Origin: Candidatus Woesearchaeota archaeon
Lineage (GTDB): Archaea > Nanobdellota > Nanobdellia > Woesearchaeales > JAGVZT01
Assembly: GCA_043812815.1 (NCBI GenBank)
Contig: JBDRLT010000040.1
Coordinates: 35,724 to 99,723 of the forward strand
Reading direction: 5' to 3'
DNA: 64,000 bases
Shown here: positions 5,364-35,094 of the stretch, in pieces
Layout: each line of letters starts with the position of its first letter
Numbering within the stretch: the stretch's first letter is position 1
The notes under the pieces: generated by a model
What the model saw: the letters and a program-made list of their open reading frames with translations, nothing else
Databases searched by the model: none
What the model was told of the DNA's origin: nothing
Made by a program: the position numbers and the translations under genes

Positions 5364-5584
5364 GATTGTACCTCATATCGGGTGAGATTGTACCTTTAAC
5401 GGGGTATATTGGTATTTAAACCTTTGTTTTTTCGGCTTGATAGGACTCCATAAGTTCTGCATCAATAAAAACACATTGTGAATTAAAGCAGAGCGGTTGT
5501 CTTGTTTAACTATGTGCTCAAAATCCACTAATCAAACCAAATACTTTTCCAGCAGTCCTCTTTTATTCTGTATTCTCATGCTTA

Positions 5585-6067
5585 TCAGCCGTTTTTCTTT
5601 AACTCTGCTTGGAATTCACTTCTGATTTCCTTAATCTTCTTCTCATTTAATTTGATAAGAATTGACTTACATTTAACTAAGAATTCAGGAGCTTTTGTAA
5701 TCATTTCATTATATTGCTCATCAGGAACAGTCCTATCAATATAATATTGAGAATCTATTCTTGCCTTTAACGAGTCCTCTGTAAAACCCAATTCTTCCTC
5801 TTTGAAATAATCTTTAAGGTATCTCTTTGCAAATTCTATAGTGCATGAATGGATTTCACATTTGATTCCGATTTTTGTCAAAATGGAATAAAGCGAGAAA
5901 TACAGGGTGTAATATGCAGTTGAAATCCTCCAATCTTTTATGATATTTACCCTCATTGATTCAAGAGCCTCTTCAGCTTTCTTAACATAAGCTTCTGCAA
6001 GATTGGAATTTGGTTCAATTAAGTTTAATCCTCCTTTCTTCCCAGCACACCATCTTATCTTATCCAT
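5585..6067 (-). CDS. HEPN-like protein (second module)
   Basis: 160-aa alpha-helical protein immediately downstream of and overlapping the NTase gene. Same architecture as 4289..4762. Confidence 0.5.
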   Translation of the reverse strand: MDKIRWCAGKKGGLNLIEPNSNLAEAYVKKAEEALESMRVNIIKDWRISTAYYTLYFSLYSILTKIGIKCEIHSCTIEFAKRYLKDYFKEEELGFTEDSLKARIDSQYYIDRTVPDEQYNEMITKAPEFLVKCKSILIKLNEKKIKEIRSEFQAELKKNG

Positions 6068-31152: not shown

Positions 31153-32019
31153 TTATCTGAAAATAAATTTATGTAGTGCGGTCCTTCGGCGGCCAGAACT
31201 AAAGGTATAGGCTTGAAAATAAGACCTGTTTTCAAGTGTGACAAGTTGATCTGGGAGGATTTTGTCAGGATGACGATGCATCGCATAGCCACGAAGAACC
31301 AAGGGGGTATGGTCTGCTACAAATGCGAGGACATTTAACAGGGTTTCTCCTGTGTTGGTGTTTTCCTCGATAACTGCAACATTAGCGCCGTTTATAGCTG
31401 TCGCAACTTGGCCGAAGTGTTCGGGTAGTATTTTCACTTGTCCTTGTGTGTATTTAACAAAACCGATATCCACGCCGAGAATACCTGCTACAAGCATTGC
31501 AGCTTCAGATGCTCCACATGCACAACAAACGATGTAATCTGGTATAAGGGATTTGTCAGTCGAAACTCTGTCAACTAGAGATAGAGCAAAATCTGCCACT
31601 TCATCAATAGATATGCTTGCATCACTATTCCTTGCTCTTTTCCAGTAGTTTACATCACCCAATTTTCTAATGTTTGGGGCCATTGCTACAACCCATGATT
31701 CATACCTTTCTGAATCAGGGTGACCAGAGTAGTATGAGGTAATGTACTGGATTGCCATTGGGATGAGGCTTTTCATGATACTGAGCGCTAATTCTCGTTT
31801 TTCAAGAGGAACCTCATTGTTATGCAGGGCATTGTATAATGGTTGGAATAGGTAATATATTGCTGCCCGTCTCAAATCATCAAAATCAATCCCCGCAACT
31901 GGTGGCCACTCATCAAATGATCTGGCATAAAATGTGTTTTCATCAAATGGGATTGAATTCAAGAGAGAATTTGCTGCAATCCTATTTCTAATACCTGCTA
32001 TCTGCTCAAGAGTGTACAT
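31153..32019 (-). CDS. Hypothetical protein with C-terminal phosphoribosyltransferase-like domain
   Basis: 'NVAVIEENTNTGETL' resembles the PRPP-binding loop (V.ivDDv.tTG.Tl). N-terminal ~150 aa unassigned. Confidence 0.45.
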   Translation of the reverse strand: MYTLEQIAGIRNRIAANSLLNSIPFDENTFYARSFDEWPPVAGIDFDDLRRAAIYYLFQPLYNALHNNEVPLEKRELALSIMKSLIPMAIQYITSYYSGHPDSERYESWVVAMAPNIRKLGDVNYWKRARNSDASISIDEVADFALSLVDRVSTDKSLIPDYIVCCACGASEAAMLVAGILGVDIGFVKYTQGQVKILPEHFGQVATAINGANVAVIEENTNTGETLLNVLAFVADHTPLVLRGYAMHRHPDKILPDQLVTLENRSYFQAYTFSSGRRRTALHKFIFR

Positions 32020-32077
32020 ACATTTTGGAGAAGTTGTTTATTATATAAATTCTGTGAGTATCGTGACCGTAGAGTGA

Positions 32078-32288
32078 TAATGCGGGGGACGGGACTTTCA
32101 ACCATAGGTGGCTTTACGCCGCCTGAATTTTGGTCCAGCTTTTCCAAAAAGATGGTTTTGAACCCGCGTATCCACTAAGGAACAGGATGTCATCGGCGGA
32201 ACCAAGGAAACCCTGGTGTCCTCGCCGCTTAAGTCCTGCGCATTTGATTGTCCGGCAATAGCCTCCAGACTTTGCTACCCCCGCATTA
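32078..32288. ncRNA. Candidate structured ncRNA (identity unresolved: SRP RNA / RNase P RNA / 5S-like / other), strand undetermined
   Basis: A 211-nt ~52% GC island in ~30% GC intergenic DNA. It is closed by a perfect 11-bp terminal helix (32078-32088 TAATGCGGGGG with 32278-32288 CCCCCGCATTA). Internal hairpins at 32107-32123 (GGTGGC-TTTAC-GCCGCC) and 32128-32149 (TTTTGG...CCAAAA). No ORF. Confidence 0.3.
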
Positions 32289-32697
32289 GGTAAGGCGTTT
32301 GTATTTGCGTATAAAAAGGTTTTGAAATATTTATTTGTATGTAATTTCTCACTAGCATTCGATTCTCAAGCACAGCTTGAGACTTGCGGAGCCTAAAATT
32401 TTGAAGTATTCTTAACCGACACTAAAATAATTAATAGAAAATATTTTGGCGCGCAATCAGCAAAGGATGGCTCGAAGCCGCGGGAACATCTACTACTGTT
32501 CCTAGCTGGCGAGGTATGTTGGAATACCTCTGTAATTGCCGAGCTTATAACTAGTGTGCAGTCATTTTAGGTGACCCGAAAGTATTTTTTGAAATTTTGC
32601 TTTTTCCTTTTTACCACACAAGAATACTTACTAAACCTTATAAATAAAACAGATTTTAGATATACATTAGCAGCGGTTTGGGAAAAAGAGGTGAAGT

Positions 32698-35094
32698 ATG
32701 AAGTCTGAGGCTTTTATTTTGTGGTTTGATCAACTGGGTATTGAGGATATTCCATCTGTTGGCGGGAAGAATGCGTCTTTGGGCGAAATGTACAGGCTGC
32801 TCACTCCAAAAGGGGTGAGGATTCCAAACGGTTTTGCAGTTACAGCATATGCATACCGCTATTTGCTTGAGCAGACAGGTGCGCAGGAGAAGATTAGGCA
32901 GATCCTCGCTGATTTGAACACGCATGATTTGAAGAATCTCCAAGAAAGAGGAGCAAAGGTTAGAGATCTGATAAAGAGCCTTGAGTTTCCAAAAGAGCTT
33001 GCTGAGGCGATTATTGACGGTTATAGAAATCTTGAAAAGCAGTATGGGGAGAATGTTGATGTGGCTGTAAGGAGTTCTGCCACTGCAGAGGATTTGCCTG
33101 ATGCGAGTTTTGCCGGACAGCAGGATACTTTTTTGAATATCCACGGTTATGAAGCTGTGATTGATGCTTGCAGGAGGTGTTTTGCCTCTTTGTTTACGAA
33201 TCGTGCTATCTCCTATAGACAGGATAAGGGGTTTGACCATTTCTCTATTGCCCTTAGTATCGGGGTGCAGAAGATGGTGAGAAGCGATATGGCATGTTCT
33301 GGGGTTATGTTTAGCATTGATACTGAGTCTGGGTTTAGGGATGCTGTTTTCATAACAGGTTCTTATGGCCTTGGAGAAAATGTGGTGCAGGGCGCAGTCA
33401 ATCCGGATGAGTTTTATGTGCACAAACCTACACTTAAACAGGGTTTCAAGCCGATTATTATGAAGAAGGTGGGCGAGAAAAAGATCAAGATGATTTACAC
33501 CACAGACCAAAAGACTCCAACCAAGAATGTTGAGGTTGTGCCTGAGGATCGTAGGAAGTTTTGCATCACAAATGCTGAGATTCTGGAGCTGGCTTGGATG
33601 GCTGTGGCTATTGAGGATCATTACTCTGGAAAAGCAGGCCACTTCAAGCCAATGGATATGGAGTGGGCAAAGGATGGGATTACCGAACAATTGTTTGTAG
33701 TGCAGGCACGGCCAGAGACTGTGCAAAGCCAGAAAGATCAGAGTGTGCTGAGAGAATATGTTTTGCAAGAGAAGGGTGAAGTTATTGTTGCAGGGAAGTC
33801 TGTGGGCAGTCTTATTGGCAAAGGCAAGGCTAATGTTATTAAGAATGTGCACAACATCCATGATTTCAGGAGAGGAGATGTACTGATCACTGATATGACT
33901 GATCCTGACTGGGAGCCAATAATGAAGATTGCAGCTGCTATTGTGACCAACAGAGGGGGCAGAACATGCCATGCTGCGATTATTTCAAGGGAATTAGGGA
34001 TCCCATGTGTTGTTGGCTCTAACAATGGAACAGAGCTTGTCAAGCAGGGAGAAGAGGTCACTGTTGACTGTTCGCAGGGAGCAGCGGGTTTTGTGTATAG
34101 GGGTTTGCTCGATTTTGAAGTGAAGGAGACAAGGCTTGATAATCTGCCTCAGACAAAGACAAAGATTATGCTGAATATCGGGAATCCAGAGCAGGCTTTT
34201 GAGGCTAGCTTTATTCCTAATGACGGGGTTGGGTTGGCACGCGAGGAGTTTATTATCAATTCTTACATCAAGGTGCATCCGCTGGCTCTGCTCCATTTTG
34301 ATGAGCTTGAAGATGACAGGGTGAAGTGGGAGATTGAGAATCTGACTTATGCTTATGAAAACAAGGCTCAGTTTTATGTTGACAAGCTTGCAGAGGGTAT
34401 TGGAATGATTGCTGCTGCTTTCTATCCCAAGAAGGTTATTTTGAGGCTGAGCGACTTCAAATCAAATGAATATGCCAATTTGATTGGTGGTAAGCAGTTT
34501 GAGCCTGCCGAGGTCAATCCAATGCTGGGGTGGAGGGGTGCCTCAAGGTATTATTCTGCCAAATACAAGAAGGCATTCAGCCTGGAGTGCAAGGCGATTC
34601 TCAAGGTGAGGAATGAGATGGGGCTTACTAACGTTGAGGTGATGATTCCTTTCGCGCGCACTGTGGAAGAGGCGGAGAAGGTGGTTCAAACCATGGCTGA
34701 GTTTGGACTGAGGAAAGGGGAGAATGGTTTGAGGATAATTGGCATGTGCGAGATCCCTGCAAATGTTATTCTGGCTGATGAATTTTTAGAAGTCTTTGAT
34801 GGTTTTAGTATAGGCACTAATGATTTGACTCAGCTGCTGCTGGGTGTTGACAGGGATTCGCAACTTGTTGCGCATATTTATGACGAGCGCAATGAGGCTG
34901 TGAAGAGAATGGTGAAATGGGTGATTGAGTCTGCGAATGCAAAAGGAAAGTATATTGGGATTTGCGGGCAGGCACCGTCTGATTATATTGAGTTTGCTGA
35001 GTTTGTGGTTAAAGCTGGGATCCATTCACTGAGTCTTAACCCAGATACTGTTATTAAGACAAAGGTGGATATTGCTAAATTGGAGGGAGAGTGA
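32698..35094 (+). CDS. ppsA: Phosphoenolpyruvate synthase (pyruvate, water dikinase)
   Basis: 798 aa. N-terminal ATP-grasp ('GGKNASLGEM'), phospho-His domain ('GGRTCHAAIISRELGIPCVVG') and C-terminal PEP-utilising TIM barrel. Confidence 0.9.
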   Translation: MKSEAFILWFDQLGIEDIPSVGGKNASLGEMYRLLTPKGVRIPNGFAVTAYAYRYLLEQTGAQEKIRQILADLNTHDLKNLQERGAKVRDLIKSLEFPKELAEAIIDGYRNLEKQYGENVDVAVRSSATAEDLPDASFAGQQDTFLNIHGYEAVIDACRRCFASLFTNRAISYRQDKGFDHFSIALSIGVQKMVRSDMACSGVMFSIDTESGFRDAVFITGSYGLGENVVQGAVNPDEFYVHKPTLKQGFKPIIMKKVGEKKIKMIYTTDQKTPTKNVEVVPEDRRKFCITNAEILELAWMAVAIEDHYSGKAGHFKPMDMEWAKDGITEQLFVVQARPETVQSQKDQSVLREYVLQEKGEVIVAGKSVGSLIGKGKANVIKNVHNIHDFRRGDVLITDMTDPDWEPIMKIAAAIVTNRGGRTCHAAIISRELGIPCVVGSNNGTELVKQGEEVTVDCSQGAAGFVYRGLLDFEVKETRLDNLPQTKTKIMLNIGNPEQAFEASFIPNDGVGLAREEFIINSYIKVHPLALLHFDELEDDRVKWEIENLTYAYENKAQFYVDKLAEGIGMIAAAFYPKKVILRLSDFKSNEYANLIGGKQFEPAEVNPMLGWRGASRYYSAKYKKAFSLECKAILKVRNEMGLTNVEVMIPFARTVEEAEKVVQTMAEFGLRKGENGLRIIGMCEIPANVILADEFLEVFDGFSIGTNDLTQLLLGVDRDSQLVAHIYDERNEAVKRMVKWVIESANAKGKYIGICGQAPSDYIEFAEFVVKAGIHSLSLNPDTVIKTKVDIAKLEGE

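Follow-up and report, generated by a model that had tools for sequence, protein, structure and literature searches.

A predicted tRNA-Leu(UAA) gene with three archaeal-type introns in a Candidatus Woesearchaeota genome

The minus strand of the segment extending from position 32081 to 32284 of the window, that is, of the whole 64-kb stretch of DNA analysed here, very probably carries a class II tRNA-Leu(UAA) gene that is interrupted by three introns of archaeal type. The host is a Candidatus Woesearchaeota (DPANN) genome. The introns are placed between nucleotides 19 and 20 in the D loop (17 nt), at position 37/38 in the anticodon loop (39 nt), and between nucleotides 59 and 60 in the T loop (62 nt). 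The gene is 204 nt long in the genome and 86 nt long once the introns are taken out, and the CCA end is not encoded. The 204 nt are fully accounted for by exons of 20, 20, 32, and 14 nt and by introns totalling 118 nt. The layout of the gene, read directly from the DNA, is given in Table 1.

Table 1. Parts of the tRNA-Leu(UAA) gene and flanking features. Coordinates are those of the window; p, position on the minus strand, is 32289 minus the window coordinate.
Feature	Window coordinates	Strand	p	Length	Content or remark
tRNA precursor region (whole flagged element)	32078..32288	-	1-211	211 nt
Leader		-	1-4	4 nt	UAAU
tRNA nucleotide 1 to discriminator A73	32081..32284	-		204 nt
Exon 1	32265..32284	-	5-24	20 nt	GCGGGGG UA GCAA AGUCUGG: acceptor 5′ strand GCGGGGG, U8 A9, D stem GCA(A), D loop through G18 G19
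Intron 1	32248..32264	-	25-41	17 nt	AGGCUAUUGCCGGACAA; D loop, between G19 and nucleotide 20
Exon 2	32228..32247	-	42-61	20 nt	UCAA AUGC G CAGGA CUUAAG: remaining D loop and D stem (UCAAAUGC), G26, anticodon stem 5′ strand CAGGA, anticodon-loop nucleotides C32 U33 U34 A35 A36 G37
Anticodon	32229..32231	-		3 nt	UAA (codon UUA; UUG by wobble)
Intron 2	32189..32227	-	62-100	39 nt	canonical 37/38 site
Exon 3	32157..32188	-	101-132	32 nt	A UCCUG UUCCUUAGUGGAUAC GCGGG UUCAAA: A38, anticodon stem 3′ strand UCCUG, variable arm, T stem 5′ strand GCGGG, T loop UUCAAA
Intron 3	32095..32156	-	133-194	62 nt	T loop, between nucleotides 59 and 60
Exon 4	32081..32094	-	195-208	14 nt	U CCCGU CCCCCGC A: U60, T stem 3′ strand CCCGU, acceptor 3′ strand CCCCCGC, discriminator A73
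Trailer		-	209-211	3 nt	UUA
Candidate archaeal TATA box	32310..32317	-			TTTTTATA; by eye, from the sequence
Left neighbour, 288-aa protein	31153-32019	-			just downstream of the tRNA, same strand
ppsA	32698-35094	+

The gene lies within a 211-nt element which an earlier note had described as a GC-rich island with inverted 11-bp termini. Both parts of that description hold. The element begins at 32078-32088 with TAATGCGGGGG and ends at 32278-32288 with its exact reverse complement, and its GC content is 52.1%, against 32.8% in the left spacer and 36.2% in the right spacer. The mean of the window is 42%; the element is thus an island relative to its non-coding flanks and not relative to coding DNA. 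Folding of the plus strand gives -78.4 kcal/mol (z = -3.96) and folding of the minus strand -81.9 kcal/mol (z = -3.75), and on neither strand was a fold as good obtained in any of 200 dinucleotide shuffles. The centroid of the minus-strand fold is close to the minimum-energy structure, so that this fold is better defined than that of the plus strand. Its helices also hold several G-U pairs, which are A-C mismatches on the plus strand.

The proposal that the element is a structured non-coding RNA gene with pairing 5′ and 3′ ends was borne out in this broad sense, the gene being very probably a tRNA-Leu. The closing stem, which had been likened to the P1 or helix-1 stem of larger RNAs, is something else: the 11-bp helix is made up of the 7-bp acceptor stem of the tRNA, a U(-1)-A73 pair, and three pairs between leader and trailer. 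In the related metagenome genes described below, with flanks read by eye, comparable extensions of the acceptor stem range from 0 to about 4 pairs. Since their length varies in this way, we do not count the extension as a defined feature and consider it incidental, the flanks being AT-rich.

The recognition of the tRNA depends on removal of the introns, as follows. ARAGORN makes no tRNA call in the raw window, and it still makes none in the element when introns 2 and 3 are removed. When a further 14-20 nt are taken from the D region, tRNA-Leu(taa) is called for nearly every choice of ends. With the ends defined by the splice-junction motifs, the product is 86 nt long, folds as a clean class II cloverleaf, and is called tRNA-Leu(taa); this recognition after in silico splicing is a direct observation. 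Two controls were run. In the first, 1000 dinucleotide shuffles of the element underwent the same three deletions, and no tRNA was called in any of them. In the second, every single deletion was made in the adjacent spacer from 32400 to 32620 on both strands, and none of the 29,262 variants gave a call, with canonical introns allowed in ARAGORN. Because both controls gave none, the call is not a product of many deletion trials.

The failure of the standard tools on the raw gene is explained by its four short exons being parted by 118 nt of introns. The unspliced gene gives no match to the Rfam tRNA model RF00005, even at E<=10. The statement of the earlier note that no tRNA was seen in the window agrees with ARAGORN for the raw sequence, but would not hold for a gene free of the interruptions. 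Similarly, an absence of covariance-model matches, which had been named as grounds for giving up the RNA gene, would have wrongly dismissed what is in all likelihood a real tRNA gene. In the rest of the 64-kb window, both strands of which were scanned for an intact T arm with a pattern of a 5-bp stem plus a TTCRAW loop, no other tRNA, T-loop intron, or intact T arm was found.

The spliced product has the features of a tRNA throughout. With standard position numbers assigned by hand from the sequence, the near-invariant U8, A14, G18 G19, U33, G53, U54 U55 C56, A58, and C61 are all present, as are C32, G37, A38, and A73. The acceptor stem has 7 bp, there is a possible G15-C48 pair, and position 26 is a purine. 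The anticodon loop reads C32-U33-UAA-G37-A38, and the T loop reads UUCAAAU. A long variable arm and an A73 discriminator are leucine identity elements, and the product combines a 15-nt variable arm, UUCCUUAGUGGAUAC, with A73 and the anticodon UAA.

All three inserts are bounded by 3-nt bulges spaced four positions apart. In intron 1, the central helix is GUCU/GGAC, formed by the pairs G19-C39, U20-A38, C21-G37, and U22-G36 (p numbering here and in what follows), of which one is a G-U pair. The bulges are G23 G24/A25 and A40 A41/U42, with the slash at the exon–intron boundary, and the inner hairpin is G26 G27 C28 - UAUU - G33 C34 C35. Lacking an outer helix, intron 1 takes the relaxed HBh′ form. 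In intron 2, the bulges, A60 G61/C62 and A99 C100/A101, are correctly placed, four positions from the anticodon stem and four from the inner helix. Two of the four positions of its central helix are Watson–Crick pairs (C56-G98 and U58-A96), which makes the motif a relaxed one, and a strong inner hairpin follows. In intron 3, the central helix pairs the exonic U127 U128 C129 A130 with the intronic U189 G190 A191 A192. The 5′ bulge is A131 A132/A133 and the 3′ bulge is A193 G194/U195, the latter adjoining the T stem. An extra unpaired U stands beside the inner helix, ACCAU/AUGGU, which encloses two hairpins, at 32107-32123 and 32128-32149. These are the two internal hairpins noticed earlier; both are present, and both belong to intron 3.

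The endonuclease that splices archaeal tRNAs cleaves each 3-nt bulge after its second nucleotide. Applied to introns 2 and 3, this rule gives an anticodon loop and a T loop of exactly 7 nt, which amounts to an internal confirmation of the rule. Applied to intron 1, it gives a D loop of 11 nt, the usual form for class II tRNAs. As predicted from the sequence, then, the junctions have the bulge-helix-bulge architecture, with relaxed motifs at introns 2 and 3. Since all three introns depart from the strict motif in some way, an endonuclease of relaxed specificity would be needed.

The relaxed motifs of introns 2 and 3 would also fit a decayed tRNA-Leu pseudogene, in which the inserts stay unspliced and no working tRNA is made. 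We regard decay as very unlikely, given that every near-universal tRNA position that was checked is intact in the spliced product, that the three inserts sit exactly between 3-nt bulges four positions apart, and that the cuts give back canonical 7-nt anticodon and T loops. Moreover, the same type of 59/60 insert is found in many otherwise intact tRNA genes (see below), and splicing of such inserts occurs in a DPANN archaeon (PMC3239211).

The earlier note had pointed to archaeal SRP RNA and RNase P RNA as molecules that are closed by a terminal helix, and to short stretches resembling 5S rRNA. That the element is a divergent SRP RNA, a divergent RNase P RNA, or an enlarged 5S rRNA might be argued from the strong fold on both strands and from two minus-strand motifs, GAAAGUCC and GGACUUAAGC, which resemble the CR-I motif of RNase P RNA and 5S motifs. 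We consider this extremely improbable. Both motifs find an exact explanation in the anticodon arm and in the junction of the T-loop intron, and all 204 nt are explained by four exons and three introns. The stretches that had been compared with 5S rRNA likewise correspond to parts of the tRNA gene, namely the anticodon arm (GGACUUAAG, followed by the start of intron 2) and the variable arm (GUGGAUAC). Rfam gives no match to any family at gathering thresholds across the whole window. At E<=10, the region 31950-32750 gives no match to an SRP, RNase P, or 5S model and nothing else of relevance; a lone chance match to mir-202 falls outside the element.

Several other RNA classes were considered and set aside. 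In the light of the tRNA homologs, we gave up an RNase P RNA of minimal or circularly permuted type, which GAAAGUCC had prompted, a 5S rRNA with an insertion, and a riboswitch or leader of the downstream gene. An H/ACA or C/D guide RNA lacks its required boxes. For a retron msr/msd RNA beside a phosphoribosyltransferase-like effector, no reverse transcriptase occurs among the scanned neighbours.

The perfect inverted-repeat termini had also raised the alternative of a miniature inverted-repeat element (MITE), with terminal repeats of 11 bp or of 9 bp plus a TA duplication, the outermost TA...TA being readable as a target-site duplication. This alternative has next to no chance of being correct. 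The TAATGCGGGGG terminus, with up to one mismatch allowed, has two matches in total in the 64-kb window, both of them the ends of the element, and the body of the element has no second copy there. Against phage and plasmid records, blastn returned chance matches of 22-30 nt only, that is, no similarity. Seven of the 11 bp are the acceptor stem of the tRNA and the interior is the remainder of the tRNA gene; no target-site duplication is needed.

We propose that the minus strand is the strand of the tRNA-Leu(UAA) gene, in view of its more stable fold, of the G-U pairs, and of a candidate TATA box, TTTTTATA, at the right distance. This box is 26-33 nt upstream of tRNA nucleotide 1, which is the usual archaeal TATA distance, and its spacing would put the transcription start about 3 nt before the mature 5′ end. 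The transcription, splicing, cut sites, and enzymes that we infer for this locus are as follows. The precursor would be transcribed, probably from the TATA box about 30 nt upstream, and each exon–intron junction would fold as a bulge-helix-bulge or a relaxed version of it. EndA, the archaeal tRNA splicing endonuclease, would cut between nucleotides 2 and 3 of each bulge, and an RtcB-type ligase would join the exons. RNase P and RNase Z would trim the ends, and CCA, not being encoded, would then be added. The presumed product is an 86-nt tRNA for the leucine codons UUA and UUG. The 10 proteins scanned around the locus do not include an EndA.

Relatives of intron 3 were sought in metagenomes with the pattern GGGTTCAAAAC N{45,75} TTGAAAGTCCC, which represents the T-loop junction, its two parts being the two sides of the internal loop in the 3′ domain of the element. 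The scan returned 14 loci, against about 3-4 estimated by chance, and the junction sequences are conserved among these loci by construction of the search pattern. Most of the 14 are tRNA genes with an acceptor stem, a D arm, and an anticodon arm. In them, an insert of 65-79 nt follows the T loop TTCAAA and ends in TTGAAAG, after which come the last T-loop nucleotide, the 3′ strand of the T stem, and the 3′ strand of the acceptor stem. The recurrence of the T-loop insert is observed directly. With the insert deleted, ARAGORN calls tRNAs in 9 of the 14 loci (Ala, Gly, Cys, Ser, and Phe), and several of these carry an additional canonical intron. In the unspliced loci, ARAGORN makes no call for these tRNAs, and calls only two others, in loci L041 and L043. 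As for the five uncalled loci, two are cut by contig ends, two apparently have further inserts, and one, L039, is seemingly a chance match.

The 59/60 inserts resemble one another beyond the junctions. In most homologs, the inner helix of the intron is kept with different sequences. Intron 3 of the window aligns with the introns of L031, L032, and L037. All four have in common a closing helix that covaries, a variable hairpin enclosed by a U5/A5 helix (CUUUUU...AAAAG), a conserved (G/C)CUNGAC(C/U)AAAA stretch, and another variable hairpin. Among other loci, at least two additional sequence groups can be told apart, again laid out as a closing helix plus two hairpins. The long 59/60 introns (62-79 nt), in all of which a covarying closing helix encloses two hairpins, may form a related family across unrelated metagenome contigs. 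Such introns occur in tRNAs called Leu, Ala, Gly, Cys, and Ser. We think it rather doubtful that they are mobile and spreading in uncultured small archaea or that the excised RNA, which would probably be circular, is functional.

Some of the metagenome loci have other peculiarities. L036 and L038 are undetectable even after removal of the T-loop insert alone, and L035, L036, L038, and L040 have further inserts in the D or anticodon region beside the 59/60 insert; multi-intron tRNAs seem to be common in the organisms of these loci. In L037, at about 5513-5650, just upstream of the tRNA-Cys with the T-loop intron, lies GGGTTCGAAGCACAAGTTATAAAAACGCGAAAGTCCCTCCAGGTCC, which resembles in its sequence the 3′ terminal part of a further tRNA whose T loop holds a short insert at this same position. 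Judging from L037, genes for tRNAs with T-loop introns may be clustered.

The other searches returned no relatives. A scan of viral contigs with the T-loop junction pattern gave no matches. A scan of genome contigs with GACTTAAGCG...CGATGACATC, the internal loop of a long hairpin, gave 22 matches, nearly all in unrelated bacteria and about the number expected by chance; this pattern mixed the anticodon loop with intron sequence. Upstream of ppsA homologs of 78-81% identity from Woesearchaeota and Nanoarchaeota, nhmmer finds no copy of the element, the upstream regions being short and different. None of the relatives found is an orthologous tRNA-Leu(UAA) that shares all three introns, and therefore introns 1 and 2 rest on a single sequence.

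The neighbourhood of the gene is one of ordinary archaeal housekeeping. The 10 neighbouring proteins scanned include an ABC transporter, a DHH phosphoesterase, the ppsA product, a DeoC-type aldolase, PCMT, and aIF2-alpha, and no reverse transcriptase or transposase is among them. The 288-aa protein encoded just downstream of the tRNA has a sub-threshold phosphoribosyltransferase match in its C-terminal half. Among 5.8 billion proteins it has no homolog beyond its own NCBI record, nor does it have a match in genome contigs, and its gene is therefore an orphan.

On the other side of the tRNA gene, there is a second, weaker GC-rich bump at 32440-32560, with about 51% GC, about 140-250 nt upstream of ppsA. 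It folds marginally better than shuffles do (z = -1.5 on the plus strand and -1.7 on the minus strand). Rfam gives no match to it, and no concealed tRNA came to light when all single deletions were tried. The bump could be a ppsA leader. The Woesearchaeota ppsA of the window is 73-75% identical to Desulfovibrio-type bacterial ppsA (P0072, P0092, P0115, and P0120), which is nearly as close as many other DPANN copies are. These identities hint at a horizontal transfer of ppsA between these archaea and Desulfovibrio-type bacteria. Two ppsA relatives, P0043 and P0065 (1207 and 1249 aa), carry intein domains.

A tRNA-Leu(UAA) with three introns in a Woesearchaeota metagenome-assembled genome would help complete its decoding set, and is a warning that tRNAs apparently missing from such genomes should not be taken as a sign of gene loss or of dependence on a host. 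It also implies that the splicing endonuclease of the lineage can accept relaxed motifs in three loops of the same precursor, namely the D, the anticodon, and the T loop. For finding more such genes, GGGTTCAAAAC...TTGAAAGTCCC, the motif of the T-loop junction, offers a simple probe. The current understanding of archaeal tRNA splicing is left unchanged.

The type of gene is already known in archaea, since multi-intron tRNAs, 59/60 introns in DPANN, and D-loop introns have all been published. The non-canonical positions of archaeal tRNA introns include 20/21 and 59/60 (PMC4090602). In the Thermoproteales, up to three introns occur per tRNA (PMC4033280), and the pre-tRNA-Glu of Methanopyrus kandleri combines a D-loop HBh′ intron at 20b/21 with a canonical intron (PMC5829648). 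DPANN lineages show increased disruption of tRNA genes, and their incomplete predicted tRNA sets point to undetected disrupted tRNA genes (PMC5829648). Like the present gene, the multi-intron tRNAs of the Thermoproteales and M. kandleri have bulge-helix-bulge or relaxed HBh′/hBH motifs at their introns and are missed by standard tRNA finders (PMC4033280, PMC5829648, PMC4090602). The present gene differs from them in its Woesearchaeota host, in a D-loop intron located one to two positions earlier, and in a T-loop intron that is long (62 nt) and structured. In the papers cited here, we found no explicit record of the 19/20 position, the nearest being 20/21 and 20b/21.

The closest parallel for intron 3 is in ARMAN-2 (Candidatus Micrarchaeum), also a DPANN archaeon, whose pre-tRNA-Cys(GCA) and pre-tRNA-Pro(GGG) are interrupted at the same 59/60 site with a relaxed motif, and whose 59/60 introns are cut in vitro by the ARMAN-2 endonuclease (PMC3239211). 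The intron of the ARMAN-2 tRNA-Cys has 13 nt, in contrast to 62 nt here and 65-79 nt in the metagenome relatives. The closing helix and two hairpins set the present intron further apart, and its cleavage is predicted, whereas that of the ARMAN-2 introns has been assayed. The spliced product shares the canonical layout of archaeal class II tRNA-Leu, that is, a D stem of 3-4 bp, an 11-nt D loop, G18 G19, a long variable arm, A73, and the T loop UUCAAAU. It departs from that layout in that its gene has 204 nt instead of about 86 nt, and in that the 49-65 pair is G-U. What is particular here is that the host belongs to the Woesearchaeota, that a single tRNA-Leu combines introns in the D loop, at the canonical site, and in the T loop, that the D-loop site is 19/20, and that the 59/60 intron is long and structured.
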